From a virus (Duplodnaviria; Heunggongvirae; Uroviricota; Caudoviricetes), in IMG/VR virus record IMGVR_UViG_3300000301_000068: DNA of 9,005 nucleotides, one strand, 5' to 3'. Shown piece by piece: positions 1 through 8,402 of the stretch (positions are counted from its first letter, which is position 1; every line of letters begins with the position of its first letter). A program made the position numbers and the translations under genes. Under the pieces are notes generated by a model. The model made no database searches. It was not told the origin of the DNA and was given only the letters and a program-made list of their open reading frames with translations.

Positions 1-2309
1 TTTTTAAACCACTGCCACGCGGCCTGTAACTTTTCGCCCAGCCAGTCAAACACCGGCTTCAGTGGCGTGAACAGTTCCCCCACCGGCGCAAATGCCGCTT
101 TCAGCCCTTCAACCACACCGCCAAAGAATGCGCTGACAGGCTCCCAGTATTTACGGATAAGCAACGCCCCGGCGACAATGGCGGCCACCACGGCCACAAC
201 CGGCCAGCTAATCGCCCCGATGGCCGTCATAACAGCACTGCCAACTGTCGTGAAGATTGCCCCCATTGCGCCTGCTGCCGCGATAATGGCATTGATGCCG
301 GTGATAACCGGCCAGGCTACAAGACCAATGGCACCGATGATGCCAGTAAGCGCCAGCGCGCCACCGACAATGAGGCCGATGGTTGACGCCAGTGATTTGT
401 TTTTCTGGATCCAGCCGTCGAGTTTTAACACATACTTTGTGGCCGTCTGAGTGAGCTTACGCAGTGCGCCTTCCTGCTGGTCAAACAGGTCAGTCCCCAC
501 CGCCTCATAAGCGGACTGAAACTCCTTAAAGTCNNNNNNNNNNNNNNNNNNNNNNNNNNNNNNNNNNNNNNNNNNNNNNNNNNNNNNNNNNNNNNNNNNN
601 NNNNNNNNNNNNNNNNNNNNNNNNNNNNNNNNNNNNNNNNNNNNNNNNNNNNNNNNNNNNNNNNNNGCTTTAAACGCAGCGGTCAGTTTGTCCAGCTTTC
701 CAGTTGAGGCGGCAGTCATCAGCACGGCGGCGGCTGAGCTGGCCTCCTCCCCGAAAATAGTTTTCATGTATTCAGCCTGCTGGGCAGTACCGAGCCGGTT
801 TTTCTCAAAACTGGCCTGCATTTCNNNNNNNNNNNNNNNNNNNNNNNNNNNNNNNNNNNNNNNNNNNNNNNNNNNNNNNNNNNNNNNNNNNNNNNNNNNN
901 NNNNNNNNNNNNAATGGTAAATATTGGTCGGGTATTCCCCTTACTGTCTGAGGTTTTCACGCCAAGCTCTTTGAGTGCATCCCATGCTTTTCCCGTTGGT
1001 GCCTGCAGGCGACTTAACACGGCACGGCTTCCCGTCCCCGCCATTGNNNNNNNNNNNNNNNNNNNNNNNNNNNNNNNNNNNNNNNNNNNNNNNNNNNNNN
1101 NNNNNNNNNNNNNNNNNNNNNNNNNNNNNNNNNNNNNNNNNNNNNNNNNNNNNNNNNNNNNNNNNNNNNNNNNNNNNNNNNNNNNNNNNNNNNNNNNNNN
1201 NNNNNNNNNNNNNNNNNNNNNNNNNNCATCGCTCATGCCGTCAAAATCGGCGGCGGTTTTGTTCATCGTCATGGAGAGAACATCCCCGATATGAGCGACC
1301 TTATCGTTTGAAAGCTGAAAGGCGGATTTCATCCCCATCAACAGGGCGGCGTTTTCTTCCATCGTGCGACGGTTCGCCAGCGCCATATTCAGCGTGACCG
1401 GCGTTGCCGCCTGAATGGCATCAACATCCCCGCCGGCTTTCGCAATGATAATCTGCGCACCGGCTGCATCATCCGCCGAGGCGGCGGTGTTGTCGCCGAG
1501 CTGGCGCGCCTGCTTGCGTAGCGCGGCCATTTCTGCGGAGTCTTTTGCCACACCGAGCACGGCCTGTAATTCTGAGTTTTTCTGCGCAAACTCATAACCG
1601 GGCATCAGTAGCTTAACACCGGCCATCGTTCCCGCCGCCGCAATCCCCACACCGGCAGCGCCCACTGAGGCCATATTTCCGGCCAGTTCCTTTCCGGCCT
1701 GATAACGCTGTTTGACTGCGTTAAGTTTTGCCTGTTGTGCACTGACACGCGCCAGTGCGTCGCGCTGACGGTTAAGTTGTGCGGTGGTTTCACTGATACG
1801 GTTTTTCAGCCCCTGCTCATCATGTGCAAGATTGCGGGTATTAATTCCCACAGCGGCCAGTTCCCGCTGCTGGCGTTTAACGGAATCCGTCAGGCGGTTA
1901 TATTTCGCCTGTAAGTCCTCCGCCGCACGCTTTGCGGATTCCAGCACTTTCGCCTGAGCACGGGTCGGACGTTCGGTGTTTTTAAACTGTGTGGCAAGGG
2001 CTTCGGCCTCCTGCCGTGCCTTTTCAAGTGCATGACCAGTCACAGCGAGCTGTGCACTGGTCTTGCGGAATCCCTCAATACGGGATGCGTGACCGTTCAG
2101 CTCGCGCAGTGATTTTTGTGTTTCCCGGATATCCCCCGACAGCGATCTGCTCGCTGTACGGATGGATTTAAACGGGCGGGATGCCTGGTCAACAGCCCTG
2201 AGCAATACCTGTNNNNNNNNNNCTTGCTCGCTGTGCGGATGGATTTAAACGGGCGGGATGCCTGGTCAACAGCCCTGAGCAATACCTGTAATTTTACATT
2301 GTTACTCAT
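1..2309 (-). CDS. T: Phage tail tape measure protein (P2 gpT-like); 3' end runs off the window start
   Basis: Minus-strand ATG at 2309-2307 (MSNNVKLQVLLRAVDQASRPFKSIRTAS...) with GGAAG 6 nt upstream. Long coiled-coil-like Q/R/A/E/L-rich sequence (track ORF 805..2205), then my own translation of 667-824 (EMQASFEKNRLGTAQQAEYMKTIFGEEASSAAAVLMTAASTGKLDKLTAAFK) and a Gly/Ala-rich hydrophobic segment encoded antisense to plus ORF 67..450. Sits directly after E+E' as in P2. Interrupted by N-runs 534-666, 825-912, 1047-1226 and by the 10-N join at 2213-2222 with duplicated flanks, so the frame looks broken in the track. Confidence 0.85.
2145..2290. repeat. Uncollapsed contig overlap: 2145-2212 repeats 2223-2290 across a 10-N gap (2213-2222); likely assembly artefact
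   Basis: About 65 nt (ctcgctgt[a/g]cggatggatttaaacgggcgggatgcctggtcaacagccctgagcaatacctgt) occur on both sides of the N10 run. The single internal difference is a synonymous third-position change (cgt/cgc, Arg) in the T reading frame. The few bases adjoining the gap differ, as expected for contig ends. Confidence 0.7.
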
Positions 2310-2729
2310 TCGTGCTTCCGCTTCGCCGGAGCGCCTTTTCACGCCATGTGATGAGTTCGGTCAGGCTCATGGGATACAGTTCTGATGGCGGCCAGTGAAA
2401 TATCACTGCCACATCCGCCATCAGGTCATCGACCGACAGATTTTTCGGGAACGTCACTGCACCGAGTTCGGCGACAAAAAACCGACCACCTTACCGGCCA
2501 GCGCCACAAGGTCAGGCAGTTCCAGCGCGGCGACCTCCTGCTCGGTCAGCATCGGTGCCGTCATGCGCGGCAGCACTTTAATCAGTGCATCGACTTCAGA
2601 GTTTGCGACCGCAGCCAGACTGACACCGCGCAGCGTCCCCGCACAGGGTTTCATCAGCGTGACCTGTTCGATAACCTGCTCACCACGCTTGACCGGATTG
2701 TCCAGGGTAATCACATTTTCTTTGTTCAT
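2302..2729 (-). CDS. E+E': E+E' tail assembly chaperone fusion made by programmed -1 ribosomal frameshift (P2 gpE+E'-like)
   Basis: The -1 frame from the slippery site at 2481-2475 stays open for about 58 codons (VAELGAVTFPKNLSVDDLMADVAVIFHWPPSELYPMSLTELITWREKALRRSGSTNE) and stops at TAA 2304-2302. That stop overlaps the T start as ATGAGTAA. I translated this by hand; the arrangement matches the known P2 E/E' and lambda G/GT pattern. Confidence 0.65.
2454..2729 (-). CDS. E: Phage tail protein E (tail assembly chaperone, zero-frame product)
   Basis: 91-aa ORF MNKENVITLDNPVKRGEQVIEQVTLMKPCAGTLRGVSLAAVANSEVDALIKVLPRMTAPMLTEQEVAALELPDLVALAGKVVGFLSPNSVQ, near-identical to my recollection of P2 gpE. 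Lies between the tube gene and the tape measure. Stop is TGA at 2456-2454. Confidence 0.8.
   Translation of the reverse strand: MNKENVITLDNPVKRGEQVIEQVTLMKPCAGTLRGVSLAAVANSEVDALIKVLPRMTAPMLTEQEVAALELPDLVALAGKVVGFLSPNSVQ
2475..2481 (-). other. Slippery heptamer T_TTT_TTG for the E to E' -1 frameshift
   Basis: Minus strand reads GGT TTT TTG in the E frame (plus strand caaaaaa at 2475-2481), giving an X_XXY_YYZ heptamer 8 codons before the E stop. The -1 frame is open from here to the T start. Confidence 0.6.
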
Positions 2730-2757
2730 GGTTTTCTCACTTCTGAATCAGGGTTAA

Positions 2758-2778
2758 CCGGTCAGCCAGGCTGACCGG
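2758..2778 (-). promoter_or_regulatory. Perfect GC-rich hairpin (9-bp stem, 3-nt loop) in the FII-E intergenic region; possible attenuator or mRNA processing/stability element
   Basis: ccggtcagc-cag-gctgaccgg is a perfect inverted repeat starting 7 nt after the FII stop (TGA at 2788-2786). No U-run follows on the minus strand, so it is not a canonical intrinsic terminator. Confidence 0.4.
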
Positions 2779-2785
2779 ATGAAAA

Positions 2786-3498
2786 TCACAGGCCGATATT
2801 GCGGCGGTGTTGCTCCAGCCGGTCGACGCCATTCACCTTCTCAATCATGTTAATGGTGTCGATTTCGACCAGTTCCTTACCGTCCATCGTCAGCCGGAAA
2901 TAGGTGCAGACCACGGAGATTTTCGACTCGGTGTCTTCTCCCTGTTTACCCTCGCCGGTGTCGATTTCTTTCTGACGGCCACGCATGACCACTTCGACGG
3001 CCACCGTTTCGCCGGTATCGTCACGCTGGTAAGAGCCTGCAAAACGAATCGGCACGGCATCCACACCGGTTGCGGCGTAAAGTTCCCAGATAACCGAATC
3101 CGGGAAGCCCCCGAGCNNNNNNNNNNATCTTCTCCCTGTTTCCCCTCGCCGGTGTCGATTTCTTTCTGACGTCCACGCATGACCACCTCGACGGCCACCG
3201 TTTCGCCGGTATCGTCACGCTGGTAAGAACCAGCAAAACGAATCGGCACGGCATCCACACCGGTTGCGGCGTAAAGCTCCCAGATAACCGAATCCGGGAA
3301 GCCCCCGAGCGACCACTCCATTGACAGCGCATCGTCATCAAGGCCGAGGTCTACCGGTGCGCTGCCGTTCATCCCCGCACCGCGATAATTTTCGAGCTTA
3401 CGGGTCAGTTTTGGCAGCGTGACGGACGTTGCAACGCCCTGATAGCTGTAGCCGTTCAGAAAGACATTCATGTATTTGAGTTTGCGCGGCATTGCCAT
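2786..3498 (-). CDS. FII: Tail tube protein (P2 gpFII-like); frame broken in this assembly by a 183-bp duplicated overlap and 10-N gap
   Basis: ATG at 3498-3496 with GGAG 8 nt upstream (MAMPRKLKYMNVFLNGYSYQGVATSVTLPKLTRKLENYRGAGMNGSAPVDLGLDDDALSMEWSLGGFPDSVIWELYAATGVDAVPIRFAGSYQRDDTGETVAVEVVMRGRQKEIDTGEGKQGED...). The C-terminal part ...TESKISVVCTYFRLTMDGKELVEIDTINMIEKVNGVDRLEQHRRNIGL ends at 2786. Removing 2934-3127 restores a single 172-codon ORF, the expected size for a P2-type tube protein. Confidence 0.8.
2934..3310. repeat. Uncollapsed overlap: 2934-3116 and 3128-3310 are about 97% identical (6 differences) across a 10-N gap (3117-3126)
   Basis: Direct comparison of the two 183-nt copies. 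All six differences are third-codon-position synonymous changes in the FII frame (ggt/ggg, ggc/gga, gaa/gag, gca/gct, ggc/ggt, gaa/gag). Both copies encode the identical peptide DAVPIRFAGSYQRDDTGETVAVEVVMRGRQKEIDTGEGKQGED. Confidence 0.75.
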
Positions 3499-3510: not shown

Positions 3511-4849
3511 TTAATTGCTGTTAACCGAGGTGACCAGATTTGCCAGGTATTTATCGGTAATACGCTGGCGCAGGGTCAGGTTTTCGAGAGGAGGCACCGG
3601 GGTATAGTCGTAGTCGATATACAGTTTTCCGGCCTTGAGGGTTTCCGCATCGTTGGATTCTTCGCTGAACCAGCAGGTCGCATCCACGATATAGCCGTTT
3701 GTTTTCAGCTCTCGGAATTTGGCATTGATGCCGTCAACGATGTCGCGAATCAGCGTTGCGGTGATGGGCTTGTCCACCGCCCACATGTGCGCCTCAGCCA
3801 TCGTGTCGGCCAGCACCTGCGCGGTGCGGGTGTAGTTTTCAAAGAGGAACAGCGGGTCATCAGAGCAGGTACGGTTACCCCAGAAGCGGAAACCGTCGCG
3901 GCGAATCAGCGTAGTGACGCCTGACTCGTTAAGCAGGTCAGCATCGGTGCCGGACTCCTGCAAATCCCAGAATACGGACGCGCTGATGCCGGTAACACCG
4001 TTCACCCCGACGTTGGACAGCGTTTTATGCCAGCCCTGCTCCTGGTCGATTTTAGCACGCAGCCCCAGCGCACGGGCGGTGGCATACGCGGTGGCGGTGG
4101 TACTGGTGACCGTATCCCATGCGAGGAAATCCGGCCAGATGACCATCAGCTCACGCTGGCTGAAATTCTGGCGGTAGGCTTTCACCTCGGAAATAGTTTT
4201 ACAGCCCCATGCGCTGATATACCCGAAAGCGCGCAGCTTCTGACAGACTGATGCCAGTGCAACAGCCACCTCTTTGGTATCCAGCCCCGGCACACCAAGA
4301 ATACGCGGTTTAACANNNNNNNNNNNNNNNNNNNNNNNNNNNNNNNNNNNNNNNNNNNNNNNNNNNNNNNNNNNNNNNNNNNNNNNNNNNNNNNNNNNNN
4401 NNNNNNNNNNNNNNNNNNNNNNNNNNNNNNNNNNNNNNNNNNNNGGTGGTTCCGATGATATTGGAAACAGTCTGCGCGAGTTTCGTTTCCTCGTCGTCGC
4501 CGGTGCCGTCTTCCACGCGCACAACAACGGTGACCGGTTTTGACTGGTCGGCGATGGCCTGCAGCGACGCCGCCAGCGTGCCTTTTTTACCGGCCTTTGC
4601 AATTGCGCTCTGCACATTNNNNNNNNNNNNNNNNNNNNNNNNNNNNNNNNNNNNNNNNNNNNNNNNNNNNNNNNNNNNNNNNNNNNNNNNNNNNNNNNNN
4701 NNNNNNNNNNNNNNNNNNNNNNNNNNNNNNNNNNNNNNNNNNNNNNNNNNNNNNNNNNNNNNNCCGACAATGGCGGTGGATACGGTGGAAATGACGCGGG
4801 TGCCGTCGTTAATCTCCAGCACCTGCACGCCATGATGATAGTCGCTCAT
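3511..4849 (-). CDS. FI: Contractile tail sheath protein (P2 gpFI-like); interrupted by N-runs 4316-4444 and 4619-4763
   Basis: ATG at 4849-4847 with GGAG 9 nt upstream. N-terminus [28 protein letters not shown], middle segment [58 protein letters not shown], and long C-terminal part [37 protein letters not shown]...[25 protein letters not shown] ending at TAA 3513-3511. The frame changes across the 4316-4444 N-run, which is why the track splits it into two ORFs. Confidence 0.85.
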
Positions 4850-4949: not shown

Positions 4950-4976
4950 AAAGAAAAGGCGGGCAATCAGCCCGCC
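4950..4976 (-). terminator. Rho-independent terminator ending the tail-fibre operon downstream of G
   Basis: Minus strand reads GGCGGGC-tgatt-GCCCGCC followed by TTTTCTTT, starting 5 nt after the G stop codon. Confidence 0.65.
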
Positions 4977-4981
4977 TGTGT

Positions 4982-5560
4982 TTATTGCGGTAGTTCCGGC
5001 CATTCAATATCCGGGGCATTTTCCGGCTGAACGCGATTCAGTAGCACACGGTATTTTTTCCAGTGTGTCAGGCTTAACTTTTCTTCCTCGGTAGCCATAT
5101 CTAAATCGACAGCATCCTGCAGAGTGGCAATAATTTCACCTGCATATGCAATCTGCTCTTTCTTCTGAGACTCCGCCGCTCTGACAAGCGCATCACGTTC
5201 TGCATTCTCATCATTCACCCACGCATTTCCGTCCCATTTCTGATAATCCCCCTCCGGGGAAATAGCTGTCACGTCTGGAGGTAATACGCCAAGTTCAGAA
5301 ATATAAATGGCTGCTCCTGTTTTCGTTTCGTAGACGGTCTTTCCGCGATGGTCTTCCATCAGTTCCCATTTCATTTCATCTGCATTGAAAACGGCTGCAT
5401 AACCAGCAGGAATATCAGGTGGTGCAATATCTGTACTGTTTGCAGGCAGGCCAGTATACGGCGGAATATATGCATCACTTTCGCCAATAAACTCATTGGT
5501 TCCATTAAGTAAATTGAAAACGCGGATAGTTTGTGCTTCTGCACTCATTCTGAAAGCCAT
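4982..5560 (-). CDS. G: Tail fibre assembly protein (chaperone); lambda Tfa-like N-terminal half in the P2 gpG position
   Basis: 192-aa [57 protein letters not shown]...[38 protein letters not shown]. The C-terminal [11 protein letters not shown]...EWPE motif is characteristic of the Tfa family. Its ATG overlaps the H stop (TAATG). Confidence 0.8.
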
Positions 5561-8235
5561 TATGCAAGCCTCACAATATAGTTAAATGCGATGTTTTTGA
5601 CGGTGTTTTCGGTATTACCCGTAGCATTTACCGTGATGGTGTGCCCGTGCGCACCTAATGCTACAGTGTGTGCATGGGCACCAATACCTACAGTGTGGTT
5701 ATGCTGACCAATATCCACCGTATGGGCGTGCGCTCCGGCTGTGCTGGACACCTGATTGTTTCCTGAAGCCTGTACACGCTGTTTTCCACCGACAGAGTCG
5801 CCGCCATAAACACCACCGACAGTGTGCGTATGATTGCCCGTATTGTTCGTTGATTTTGTGCCATGGTTAAACGTACTGACTGTCTTCGTGCCGTAATCAA
5901 ATGAACTGGTCGTTTTCGTCCCTAAATCCGTATTTGACGCACTGGCGCTGTGAGTATGCGATTTAATCCCGTCCTGTTCCTGTGACAATACAGCACGTCC
6001 ACTGGCGGGNNNNNNNNNNNNNNNNNNNNNNNNNNNNNNNNNNNNNNNNNNNNNNNNNNNNNNNNNNNNNNNNNNNNNNNNNNNNNNNNNNNNNCCCTTG
6101 ATTGTCCAGCCGCGCATATCTGGAATAACACCAGAAGGATAGGCAATAGCCAGTTTAGGATATGCTGCCTTATCAAACGTCTGCCCCTGCATAATTGCAT
6201 AGCCTGCAGGTGGTGTATCTGATGGCCACGGCAGCGGAACACCTGGCGGAAACGCTTCAATATTTGCCGAGCCGTCAAATTTTACGCCGTTAATTGTCCT
6301 TGCCGTTTTCAGCTTTGTTGCTGTAGCCGCATTGCCGGACAGTTCACCAGAAAGGCCTGCACTGAATGTCTGTTTTGCCTCCCATGTCTGGGCTTCGTCG
6401 ATAATTGGTAGCCGACGAATATTGAAGCTACGCTCCCCAGGATTGCCATATAAGCGGACTGTAAAAAAACGATAGTTGGTTTTGTTTGAAGTGCTGCGCC
6501 ATACCTGCATTGAACGGGCGACACCTCCGCCTTCACTGGGGCCAACAGTGATATTTATCAGGTTAGTATCAATGACGCCCCATTCCATCCCATCGGGAAT
6601 ATTGGTCATATCTGAAAGCCTGACAGTTATCATGCTGCCCGGTATAAAGTCGTAGGTCTGCCAGTCCAGATTGGATAACCTGTCGGTAACACCGCCGACA
6701 CCTAATTTAGTGAGTAATGATTTTGAGTTGTATACTTCCGCCCATTCCCCCCAGTCAGTTTCACCGCTGGCGCGGGTTCGCTGAAATGTCCGGTTTTTAT
6801 AGGCATCCGTTGCTGAAACAGTCGTATATGTCTGGATATACGATTCAATATCGCAACGTTTTTTCACCTCGACTACCGAGCCAACAGCAAGATCTTTGTC
6901 GGTAAGTGGTGCATTTGTGGCCTGTTTCGTGACGCTATAAATACCAGGCTTTAAAAGGTCATCAAGATCCCCTGAATAAGTCCATCCCGTGGACTGATAC
7001 CCAACAGCAATCCAGTCCTCCCATTGTGGATTTTCTGCATCCCATGAGGCAGTCAGTCCGCGAATGTACATAGTCCCACTACGGGTGGTGTAACGTTGCA
7101 TCTTCCCATACAGACCGCCTTCAAAGACTTCCAGAATACCCTGCCCAAAACTCCCTTCCTCCGGGAAATGACGGTCAAATGAGGCTATTGATGTACTGCT
7201 ATTGCGCCATATTCCCAGGTGTTCCGCACCACCTAAAGAATTCAGGTCAATTGACGTGCTTAATGGGCGAGTCCCGCTTGTAATAACTCTCCATGCACTC
7301 CATACAGGACTGACAGGGTTCCATTCTGCATCAAGCATCCGAATGTAAATATTACCGGTTCGGGTGGTGTAGCGTTGTGTGCAGTGAAAGCGACCAGCAT
7401 TGAATACTTCCAGAACCCCATTGCCTTTATCTTCAGGGTAACCAGACTCTGGTTTTGCAGTGGATTGTGACGGACATGACCACGTTCCAAGATATTTTTC
7501 TTCTGGGCCATAGGAGTCAAGATTGTCAGTGGTTGGAATCATTCCATTGTGTTTCATAAACGTCAGGCTGGTAACGCCAATATTGTCCAGAAAAGCGCCC
7601 TTATCTGGAATATCGCCACCATTCTGGTCTTTCTGCAGACGTTTCTCAGCATTGTCATAGGCTGCTTTTACTGCCTTTGGCGTTGCCGCCAGCTTTTCAC
7701 TGGTGCTGTTTGTTGCACTGCTTAACTGAGTAAAACCTTTTTCTGTCAGCGTGGCGTCAGGATGGCGGCGGGACTGCTCATGCTCTGCGATTTTGTCATC
7801 GACGTAATCCTGCGTCGCCATCACTGTGCTGGCATCAATACTCAGCTCAACGGACGCCACATTGCTGAGAATAATAACCATGCGGCAGGTCTGCGCACGT
7901 CCGGAGCCTTCAGCCAGTTCTGGCTTATAGCTTTCTGCCATGTTGGATACCGCAATCAGTGTTCCGGCATCGTCATACAGACCAAGCTCACGCATCCAGA
8001 AGCCGCCCACTTCTGGCGGAACAACCAGTTCAGCCACGATATAGTTTTTATTCTTGTTATCCACGCTGACTTTATTCAGGGCGTGACGCCAGACCTCATG
8101 CACCAGTTTCGTCTGACCAGCATCCGGCACCGGCAATTTGCCATTACCGTCACCCACGGCCATTGCAGACAGAGTTACTTTTTTCCCGCCGGGGACAGTG
8201 GCGGCTGCCAGCTTCGCGGCTCCGGCAGTAGTGAT
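5560..8235 (-). CDS. H: Tail fibre protein (P2 gpH-like N-terminus, divergent distal receptor-binding region); 5' end hidden in N-run 8237-8402, internal N-run 6010-6094
   Basis: My translation upstream of the track ORF start gives [56 protein letters not shown]..., matching the conserved gpH N-terminus as I recall it, so the true start lies in the N-run. The ORF stays open to TAA 5562-5560 and ends ...[11 protein letters not shown]. It contains the PDMRG collar-like motif, an internal tandem domain repeat and a His-rich HxH C-terminal region. Confidence 0.85.
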
Positions 8236-8402
8236 ANNNNNNNNNNNNNNNNNNNNNNNNNNNNNNNNNNNNNNNNNNNNNNNNNNNNNNNNNNNNNNNN
8301 NNNNNNNNNNNNNNNNNNNNNNNNNNNNNNNNNNNNNNNNNNNNNNNNNNNNNNNNNNNNNNNNNNNNNNNNNNNNNNNNNNNNNNNNNNNNNNNNNNNN
8401 NN

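Follow-up and report, generated by a model that had tools for sequence, protein, structure and literature searches.

The end of gene E in the 9,005-nt stretch of DNA analyzed here (the window, at its full length) is overlapped by a second open frame that runs on to the start of the tape-measure gene T, raising the question of whether the two frames yield one protein by recoding or are expressed in some other way. According to the initial annotation, ribosomes shift to the −1 frame at a T_TTT_TTG heptamer near the end of E, and the resulting fusion, E+E′, is easily missed by automated gene finding. We conclude that the locus almost certainly encodes the E/E+E′ pair of tail assembly chaperones in a P2-like (Peduovirus) prophage and is expressed through programmed −1 ribosomal frameshifting. 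This is no discovery, since the E/E+E′ frameshift is already known, textbook biology (Christie 2002; Xu 2004). For this prophage copy the frameshift is read from the sequence, and the experimental demonstration belongs to P2.

Identity and Genomic Context of the Locus

Over the E+E′ span, the window shares 97% DNA identity with phage P2 (415/428 nt, 13 nucleotide differences), and the predicted E+E′ product differs from that of P2 at two of 142 residues (C29S and S139N). The closest identity among complete E. coli genomes was 98.2%, and the same locus is present in 1594 of 5426 such genomes. An exact 38-mer across the Cys29 codon had no match in the genome_contigs set. The window could be aligned base for base with the E+E′ joins of both P2 (NC_001895) and L-413C; in the P2 reference record the identical join is annotated E+E′, “site of -1 translational frameshift,” and in the L-413C record the same join is annotated as “-1 frameshift.”

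Pfam matches and alignment to P2-like genomes gave the gene order FI (sheath), FII (tube), E, E′, T, with P24A7b and P2 both collinear with the window (Table 1). FII ends with a TGA at 2788-2786, and the part of it represented here shares a contig with E. On the minus strand, E extends from an ATG at 2729 to a TGA at 2456-2454, and its product matched Pfam family PF10109 Phage_TAC_7 over residues 7-85 (E = 9e-12, 45.3 bits, cut-off 25) as well as PHROG 103, “tail protein” (E = 1e-42). Beyond the assembly gap, the body of T matched PF10145 PhageMin_Tail (E = 2e-14). The joins annotated in P2 and L-413C, the flanking FII and T genes and the conservation among relatives described below all bear out the proposal that E and E′ are a recoding pair lying between the tube and tape-measure genes. 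No solved structure was matched at E ≤ 1 when PDB sequences were searched with E+E′ by phmmer.

Table 1. Features of the E/E′ locus, in window coordinates.
Feature	Position	Strand	Basis
Scaffold join inside T	2148..2289	.	10-N run (2213-2222) between 65-nt direct repeats
T start, tape-measure gene, first 29 codons	2223..2309	-	P2 T annotation; ATG 2309-2307
E′ segment, −1 frame	2302..2475	-	Translation; Pfam PF06528; PHROG 1756; third-position variation
E+E′ full coding span, predicted 142 aa	2302..2729	-	Computed mass 15,426 Da (15.4 kDa)
Gene E, zero-frame tail assembly chaperone, 91 aa	2454..2729	-	Translation; Pfam; PHROG; P2/L-413C annotation
Slippery heptamer T_TTT_TTG, X_XXY_YYZ register	2475..2481	-	Invariant in 69 distinct close sequences; P2 annotation
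AGGTGGTC, candidate frameshift modulator	2484..2491	-	Complementary to 16S rRNA 3′ tail
FII 3′ part, tail tube gene	2786..3115	-	Pfam PF04985 Phage_tube, E = 3e-36; aligns to FII of P2-like phages

The Slippery Heptamer and the −1 Frame

TTTTTTG occurs as a single copy in the window, against about 2.1 copies per window expected from shuffles, and the heptamer count alone is not beyond chance. The significance of the heptamer derives instead from its register, its position, the Pfam match of the −1 product (E = 2e-22) and its conservation in relatives. It is read in E as GGT TTT TTG (G83 F84 L85, codons 83-85), and its TTT codon lies 8 codons upstream of the E stop, the distance originally given for it; the heptamer occupies 2481..2475 in the X_XXY_YYZ register. 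The −1 frame is open only from 2490, being bounded upstream by a TAA at 2493-2491, and the −1 ORF overlaps E by 37 nt; a productive shift is therefore confined to a stretch of about 34 nt, in which the heptamer is the sole slippery motif.

With G2475 read twice, the E′ frame continues for 57 sense codons to a TAA at 2304..2302, close to the roughly 58 further codons that had been predicted. The end of E′ and the start of T overlap by the 8 nt ATGAGTAA, within which both the TAA and the T ATG (2309..2307) fall, again as the initial annotation had it. E′ matched Pfam PF06528 Phage_P2_GpE (E = 2.4e-22, 78.6 bits, cut-off 23) and PHROG 1756 (E = 5e-28), the PF10109 and PF06528 matches both exceeding the gathering cut-offs. 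Among close relatives, 39 of the 44 variable sites in E are third codon positions, and 15 of the 21 in E′ are third positions of the −1 frame, a distribution that argues for purifying selection on the −1 frame. For P2 itself, papers citing Christie et al. 2002 (PMC3091744 and PMC3931495) describe the T6G site and give lengths of 91 aa for E and 142 aa for E+E′; PMC3931495 also reports that the −1 ORF overlaps E by 37 nt.

The sequence and comparative data show the slip site with its frames, both protein families and the syntenic gene order, together with near-identity to P2 and selection acting on the −1 frame. The sequence holds nothing that contradicts a P2-type frameshift.

Conservation Among Related Phages

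With tblastn, the two-frame arrangement was recovered from 418 phage records, query coverage being 80% or more in 403 of them; in the 40 listed records covering most of the query, the match came in two pieces. Across 469 related loci, an in-register slippery heptamer was kept in 453 (TTTTTTG in 405, TTTTTTA in 24, GGGAAAG in 11, TTTTTTC in 10, TTTTTTT in 2, and AAATTTT in 1). In thirteen divergent phages, with 33-76% amino acid identity, an in-register heptamer always preceded the E stop by 6-24 codons and was followed by an extension of 51-71 aa with the motif ADIAxxFHWPP...WRE.A..RSG. The claim that the recoding pair is conserved holds for the great majority of related loci, and the arrangement is kept down to 33% identity. 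As in lambda G/GT-type pairs, the overlapping ORFs are in place, the second ORF is in the −1 frame without a convincing start or RBS of its own, and the slip site is conserved.

Alternative Explanations for the −1 Frame

Two readings would dispense with recoding altogether. In one, E′ would be a separate small gene with its own start (GTG 2457 or ATG 2421): a 51-aa GTG ORF is present at 2302..2457 in the ORF list, several public records annotate that very ORF, and the best anti-SD match before ATG 2421 (−5.1 kcal/mol) is at least as strong as the one at the E start (−4.9 kcal/mol). The SD match of the GTG 2457 start is weak (−2.6 kcal/mol). In 7 of 15 clades, however, no ATG, GTG or TTG lies between the upstream stop of the −1 frame and the ADIA motif, so that independent initiation of E′ is impossible there, and the heptamers kept in the 453 loci include the non-homopolymeric GGGAAAG and AAATTTT. 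PMC3931495 likewise describes P2 E′ as lacking a ribosome-binding site and as made by extension of E. Given the start-less clades and the conserved heptamers, we reject independent initiation of E′ as extremely unlikely. In the other reading, a T-rich heptamer and an accidentally open frame would coincide in a G+C-rich gene, with no second product. The shuffled expectation given above would allow for the heptamer, and an open frame of 57 codons is not very rare in G+C-rich DNA, but the match of the −1 translation to a Pfam family (E = 2e-22), the concentration of variation at third positions of the −1 frame and the persistence of the arrangement in divergent phages, down to 33% identity, already refute coincidence, the probability of which we consider negligible.

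E+E′ could also arise through transcriptional slippage, if RNA polymerase inserted an extra U at the T6 run, giving an mRNA in which E+E′ is read in a single frame. The two routes differ in their products, transcriptional slippage predicting the junction ...G F F V A E... (Phe85) rather than ...G F L V A E... (Leu85); the junction peptide VVGFFVAELGAVTFPK would be expected either from transcriptional slippage or from a shift before Leu decoding. The site is indeed a homopolymer, and T7 or T8 runs occur at it in a few related contigs (L395, L177, and L473), which shows that the run length is unstable at some level, biological or sequencing-related. Sharma 2014 (PMC4066793) notes that U7 and A7 runs are shunned in every frame, slippage being a possible reason. 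Against this explanation, a T6 run is shorter than those known to give efficient RNA polymerase slippage, relatives with GGGAAAG (11 loci) and AAATTTT, both classic ribosomal shift sites, keep the two-frame arrangement where no homopolymer slippage is possible, and the heptamer always stands in the X_XXY_YYZ register of the E frame, which is relevant to tRNA re-pairing only. We therefore regard transcriptional slippage as very improbable and retain programmed ribosomal frameshifting as the reading of this locus.

Proposed Mechanism and Comparison With Known Systems

Under programmed −1 frameshifting, most ribosomes would read E (2729..2454) through to its TGA and produce the 91-aa chaperone, whereas a minority would slip at GGU UUU UUG (2481..2475). 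There, the P-site tRNA-Phe (on UUU) and the A-site tRNA-Leu (on UUG) would each slip back by a single base, re-pairing with U_UU and U_UU. Reading would then resume at GUC (2475..2473), with 57 codons leading to the UAA within AUGAGUAA, and the product would be a 142-aa E+E′ joined as ...K V V G F L / V A E L G.... Tandem −1 ribosomal slippage of this kind predicts the tryptic junction peptide VVGFLVAELGAVTFPK in a species of ∼15.4 kDa. The frameshift of P2 was demonstrated experimentally by Christie et al. 2002, as cited in PMC3091744, PMC3931495, and PMC5009743.

We infer the chaperone mechanism of P2 E/E+E′ by analogy with lambda G/GT. On this model, the tape-measure protein T would be coated by E together with the E portion of E+E′, and FII, the tube protein, would be brought in by the E′ domain. 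A fixed E:E+E′ ratio would set up correct tail assembly, and neither E nor E+E′ would stay in the virion. E′ is reportedly essential for lytic growth. The slip site of lambda is G_GGA_AAG, as against T_TTT_TTG here. In lambda, the tape measure is bound by the short form and the tube protein by the extension, and virions contain neither form (PMC5009743).

The known system closest to the window is the E/E+E′ pair of P2 (FETUD operon; Christie, Temple, Bartlett & Goodwin 2002, J Bacteriol 184:6522; NC_001895 P2p25/P2p26), which is the same locus. The heptamer, its register, the junction, the lengths of 91 and 142 aa, the 37-nt overlap, the ATGAGTAA overlap and the position between FII and T are all shared; the differences are the two substitutions and 13 nucleotides noted above and the setting, since the window represents a prophage copy and comes from a fragmented draft assembly. 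With lambda G/GT, the locus has in common two overlapping ORFs between the major tail/tube and tape-measure genes, a −1 shift shortly before the first ORF ends, and a fixed ratio of short to long chaperone (Levin, Hendrix & Casjens 1993; Xu, Hendrix & Duda 2004, 2013, 2014). It differs in that the P2 tail is contractile, with a sheath, and in that the P2 frameshift is reported, in PMC5009743, to be 2- to 3-fold more efficient than that of lambda G/GT. The literature (PMC3931495) reports no amino acid similarity between P2 E/E′ and lambda gpG/gpT, and such homology is not required for membership in the functional class.

E. coli dnaX (A_AAA_AAG; Larsen et al. 1994) offers a further parallel as a bacterial tandem-slippage heptamer, which at the present locus is possibly paired with an upstream anti-SD-complementary element. 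In dnaX, an upstream SD-like element is combined with a downstream hairpin, whereas no significant downstream hairpin was found here. An SD sequence positioned 3 nt from the dnaX site is reported to attenuate shifting (Larsen 1994). In dnaX the SD-like element stands 10 nt from the heptamer; the candidate element of the window lies much nearer to its own, and the frameshift product is longer than the zero-frame product, rather than shorter as in dnaX.

Candidate Stimulators of Frameshifting

Sharma et al. 2014 (PMC4066793) do not place U_UUU_UUG among the heptamers that shift efficiently to −1 in E. coli. Because this heptamer is not an efficient one in E. coli and no significant downstream structure accompanies it, the efficiency reported for P2 is not explained by the heptamer alone. 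We looked for stimulators of the dnaX/IS type, that is, an SD-like element 6-17 nt 5′ of the heptamer and a stem-loop or pseudoknot 5-9 nt 3′ of it. No stable stem-loop or pseudoknot was found in the window at the latter spacing: the 90 nt 3′ of the heptamer folded with z = −1.46, and 21 of 200 shuffles folded equally well. The corresponding 70-nt segments of 14 diverse relatives gave z values from −1.7 to +1.6, none of them significant and with no common fold, in agreement with PMC3091744. A 5-bp hairpin, CGCCG-AACU-CGGUG (2473-2460), was considered as a stimulator and rejected; it begins 1 nt past the heptamer, too close for a canonical role.

On the upstream side, AGGTGGTC stops 2 nt short of the heptamer, and its AGG core lies ∼7 nt upstream. 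The overlapping 10-mer AAGGTGGTCG (2492..2483) forms a duplex with GAUCACCUCCUUA of −12.8 kcal/mol, placing it in the top 0.08% of the strand's 10-mers, and comparable anti-SD-complementary upstream elements occur in 6 of 15 clades, with GGAGGTGGTC, GAGGTGACC, GGGGGT, and GGAGGTGATG as the forms in other clades. A synonymous-recoding control gave P = 0.09 for the window and ∼0.06 when Fisher-combined over the 15 clades, and the conserved K-V-V-G codons may account for the element. Since its positional enrichment is strong but the codon-level control only marginal, we report the SD-like element as a candidate only, and think it rather unlikely to be a real cis-acting frameshift modulator. If it were one, it would explain the reported efficiency on a weak U_UUU_UUG without downstream structure. 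No description of an SD-like upstream element was found in the literature consulted, in which Christie 2002 is represented by papers citing it.

Annotation Practice and Assembly of the Region

The P2 E/E+E′ pair is a standard example of conserved tail-chaperone recoding in long-tailed phages, and its frameshift has been experimentally established since 2002; the finding itself is accordingly of little research value. Its practical value lies in annotation, where a scan that recognizes the frameshift site is more accurate than the default pipeline. The warning that ORF callers miss E+E′ proved justified, in that RefSeq/PGAP and many GenBank records give a separate ORF or no annotation. Where E′ does appear in these records, RefSeq entries for the E. 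coli genomes with the locus included, it stands alone as a “GpE family phage tail protein”; the RefSeq phage records examined likewise present it as a stand-alone ORF, with no ribosomal-slippage join.

The window was assembled as a scaffold with gaps at 2213-2222 and 3117-3126, and its contig ends are duplicated; these near-identical ends may reflect two P2-like prophages. The two repeats at the join inside T (2148-2212 and 2225-2289) are 98% identical, and both map to one P2-like reference interval. E and E′ are carried on a separate 894-bp contig of the scaffold (2223-3116), on which only the first 29 codons of T are contiguous with E′.

Identity and Geometry of the E/E′ Locus

The minus-strand locus is the E/E+E′ system of phage P2 itself, carried as a prophage copy that is 97% identical in DNA, and not merely a similar system; the frameshift that fuses E, the zero-frame tail assembly chaperone, to its −1-frame extension E′ is already known for it. 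A 571-bp stretch matched 74 phage records at 95–99% identity, all of them P2-like (Peduovirus) and from Escherichia, Yersinia, and Salmonella. The P2 reference (NC_001895) annotates E and, as a join, E+E′, with the remark [quoted passage not shown]; a misc_feature in that record reads “site of −1 translational frameshift,” and L-413C carries the same E/E+E′ annotation. In a three-way alignment the window, P2, and L-413C were collinear without gaps, with identical slippery heptamer, junction, and ATGAGTAA. Window and P2 shared 415 of 428 nt, and their products differed at two residues, C29S and S139N. Pfam searches assigned E to the tail assembly chaperone family PF10109 (Phage_TAC_7) and the extension read in the −1 frame to PF06528 (Phage P2 GpE), both well above the gathering cut-offs and with PHROGs concurring. 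Gene order on the minus strand, 5′ to 3′, is tail fibre H, fibre assembly G, sheath FI, tube FII, E/E′, and tape measure T.

The initial annotation had proposed a slippery T_TTT_TTG eight codons before the E stop, a −1 frame open from there to a TAA, and an overlap of that stop with the start of T. The heptamer was found in register, its TTT codon 8 codons ahead of the E stop; the −1 frame meets no earlier stop, and its TAA is the end of ATGAGTAA, within which the ATG of T also lies (the T protein begins MSNNVKLQVLLRAVDQ...). All of the numbers proved correct in the sequence of the window, and the interpretation is supported in full. The fused protein comprises 142 aa (15,426 Da). Because a TAA at 2493–2491 shuts the −1 frame on the upstream side, a productive 0-to-minus-1 transition is possible only between 2490 and 2457. 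With 2.1 copies of TTTTTTG expected per window vs. one present, the heptamer by itself is statistically unremarkable, and the weight of the case is carried by other evidence.

Features of the E/E′ region, upstream elements in related clades, and gaps in the window
Feature	Position	Strand	Remarks
E	2729..2454	minus	ATG 2729, 91 codons, TGA 2456–2454
Heptamer TTTTTTG	2481..2475	minus	only copy in window; GG[T TTT TTG], E codons 83–85, X_XXY_YYZ register
E′	from G2475 to TAA 2304–2302	minus	57 sense codons VAELGAVTFPKNLSVDDLMADVAVIFHWPPSELYPMSLTELITWREKALRRSGSTNE; G2475 re-read as first base of GUC
T	ATG 2309–2307 onward	minus	PF10145
FII 3′ part	3115..2786	minus	same contig as E
Fibre-assembly gene G	5560..4982	minus	
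10-N runs	2213–2222 and 3117–3126		contig joins
Other N runs	534–666, 825–912, 1047–1226, 4316–4444, 4619–4763, 6010–6094, 8237–8402		
Clade element GGAGGTGGTC	2 nt upstream of heptamer		
Clade element GAGGTGACC	upstream of heptamer		
Clade element GAGGTTGTC	upstream of heptamer		
Clade element GGGGGT	about 12 nt upstream of heptamer		
Clade element GGAGGTGATG	14 nt upstream of heptamer		

At residue 29 of E (TGT, 2645–2643, minus strand) the window has Cys where P2 has Ser and L-413C has Asn. In a set of 69 distinct close sequences it was N in 44, S in 24, and C only in the window; the position is a variable one, or Cys29 is possibly a base error in a low-quality draft. About 1.4 kb (three hypothetical genes) lying between G and FI in Peduovirus P24A7b is missing from the window at about 4976–4981; in P2 this position is occupied by the non-essential Z/fun region, where cargo genes are known to accumulate.

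Assembly Quality

The window is a draft scaffold in which contig ends overlap, interrupted by nine N runs (946 N in total). Each of the two 10-N runs sits between the copies of a direct repeat, one of 65 nt with 98% identity (flanks 2148–2289) and one of 183 nt with 97% identity (flanks 2934–3310), and both repeat copies at each join map to one reference interval; the 2–3% mismatch between copies may stem from the presence of two P2-like prophages or from errors at contig ends. Against a P2-like reference, five of the longer N runs could be sized, and each exceeded the interval it replaces by ∼80 nt. ORFs across joins are artefactual (FII of 202 aa, FI of 440 aa, and an apparent stop of T at 805). 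No gap falls within the 894-bp piece 2223–3116, on which the 3′ end of FII, E, E′, and codons 1–29 of T all lie, and the frameshift finding is therefore unaffected by scaffold gaps.

Conservation Among Related Phages

A tblastn search with the fused protein returned 418 phage records, 403 of them with a query coverage of 80% or more; the 40 records listed that cover most of the query matched in two pieces, i.e., in two frames, at identities down to 33%. Thirteen divergent phages (PSP3, phages of Yersinia, Klebsiella, Enterobacter, Burkholderia, Ralstonia, Mannheimia, and Vibrio, and one deposited as a Microcystis phage) all have an in-register slippery heptamer 6–24 codons before the E stop, followed by a −1 extension of 51–71 aa with the conserved motif ADIAxxFHWPP...EL..WRE.A..RSG. 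Across IMG/VR and GenBank, an in-register heptamer was present in 453 of 469 loci (TTTTTTG in 405, TTTTTTA in 24, GGGAAAG in 11, TTTTTTC in 10, TTTTTTT in two, and AAATTTT in one), the 16 exceptions being contigs cut at their ends, copies with 1–2 nt indels, and a few run-length variants. The heptamer was invariant in the 69 close sequences. Variable sites in these fell at third positions in 39 of 44 cases for E in its own frame and, for the part of E′ outside the E and T overlaps, in 15 of 21 cases in the −1 frame, a bias showing that the −1 reading is under purifying selection.

In a few related IMG/VR contigs the T run of the heptamer differs in length, which puts E and E′ in one frame in two of them (L395, T7; L177, T8) and E′ in the +1 frame in another (L473, T8); in a distant metagenomic relative (L384), E and E′ are fused in one ORF with no slippery run. 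These four may be homopolymer sequencing errors or real variants. Upstream of the heptamer, a 2-nt deletion (L003) or a G run 1 nt shorter (L114 and L115) breaks the E frame in three further IMG/VR contigs, in either pseudogenised prophage copies or assembly errors.

Frameshift Mechanism and Function

Simultaneous −1 tandem slippage is the best-supported mechanism. On GGU UUU UUG, the P-site tRNA-Phe (UUU to U_UU) and A-site tRNA-Leu (UUG to U_UU) would slip together and decoding would resume at GUC, yielding ...KVVGFL/VAELG..., a junction in agreement with the annotated P2 join. The slip event itself is taken from the P2 literature (PMC3091744, PMC3931495): at TTTTTTG, P2 produces E of 91 aa and E+E′ of 142 aa (PMC3091744), and its −1 ORF overlaps E by 37 nt (PMC3931495), an overlap matched exactly in the window.

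That E′ is a separate gene with its own initiation, as PGAP annotates it, is contradicted by several observations. In seven of 15 clades (60% identity clustering) neither ATG nor GTG nor TTG occurs in the −1 frame from the upstream stop to the conserved motif, so E′ cannot, as a rule, be a gene with its own initiation; the retention of the in-register heptamer in nearly all loci also counts against independent initiation, as does PMC3931495. Transcriptional slippage on T6 could likewise generate E+E′, and may be a minor contributor, but is unlikely as its source given that clades with GGGAAAG or AAATTTT share the same architecture and that the X_XXY_YYZ constraint is meaningful only for tRNA re-pairing. 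A chance arrangement is excluded by the Pfam match of the −1 product, the recurrence in 13 divergent phages, and the third-position bias.

By analogy with lambda G/GT (PMC5009743), the short protein E and the shared N-terminal part of E+E′ would bind the tape measure, and the domain added by the frameshift would attach to the tube protein and start tube polymerisation. Lambda G/GT belongs to the same functional class of conserved tail-chaperone frameshifts but has no sequence similarity to the present pair; the sole likeness to dnaX is the bacterial tandem-slip heptamer.

No stimulatory RNA structure was found downstream of the heptamer in the window (z-score −1.46), and the same folding test on 14 relatives gave z-scores of −1.7 to +1.6 and no common fold, in accord with PMC3091744. 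A small hairpin, CGCCG-AACU-CGGUG (2460–2473, minus strand), begins 1 nt after the heptamer and has 3–4 bp variants in PSP3, Yersinia phage YenM, and Klebsiella phage Kp4882-2. It was rejected as a canonical stimulator, being too near the slip site and in a region of non-significant folding energy.

Anti-Shine-Dalgarno-Complementary Element

TAAGGTGGTCGG adjoins the heptamer on its 5′ side, the minus-strand segment 2483–2493 reading TAAGGTGGTCG. For the 10-mer AAGGTGGTCG (2492..2483), the duplex with the 3′ tail of 16S rRNA, GAUCACCUCCUUA, has an energy of −12.8 kcal/mol, which ranks it within the top 0.08% among 10-mers of the minus strand of the window. We grouped 376 distinct related sequences into 15 clades and sought such elements up to 24 nt upstream of the heptamer. 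In six clades the element exceeded in strength 95% of blocks of the same size from the rest of the clade's own E/E′/T coding sequence (five at p ≤ 0.001; binomial 3e-7), at positions that differed between clades. A synonymous-recoding control gave P = 0.09 for the window and 0.006–0.23 for the positive clades, and a Fisher combination of the 15 clade P values about 0.06. Since this control is only marginal, the signal may simply stem from the conserved (K/E)-V-V-G-F-L peptide. A second point against the element is its spacing in P2, which only just reaches the lower limit of the distances at which stimulation occurs. According to Sharma et al. (2014; PMC4066793), SD-like stimulators act 6–17 nt upstream, and the list of efficient E. 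coli heptamers in that paper does not include U_UUU_UUG. On sequence grounds the element is a candidate frameshift modulator only, a side observation possibly worth a bench test.

Annotation of E′ in Public Records

Annotation of this recoding event is inconsistent across public records. P2, L-413C, PSP3, and Mana carry the joined E+E′ CDS; RefSeq/PGAP and many GenBank records give E′ as a stand-alone ORF of 40–51 aa (“GpE family phage tail protein”) or have no annotation for it, bearing out the expectation that ORF callers easily miss the pair. The stand-alone form was also that of the RefSeq phage records examined. Of 5426 complete E. coli genomes, 1594 carry the locus, and in these RefSeq treats E′ as a gene of its own under the name “GpE family phage tail protein.” RefSeq labels the tube protein FII “head closure.”
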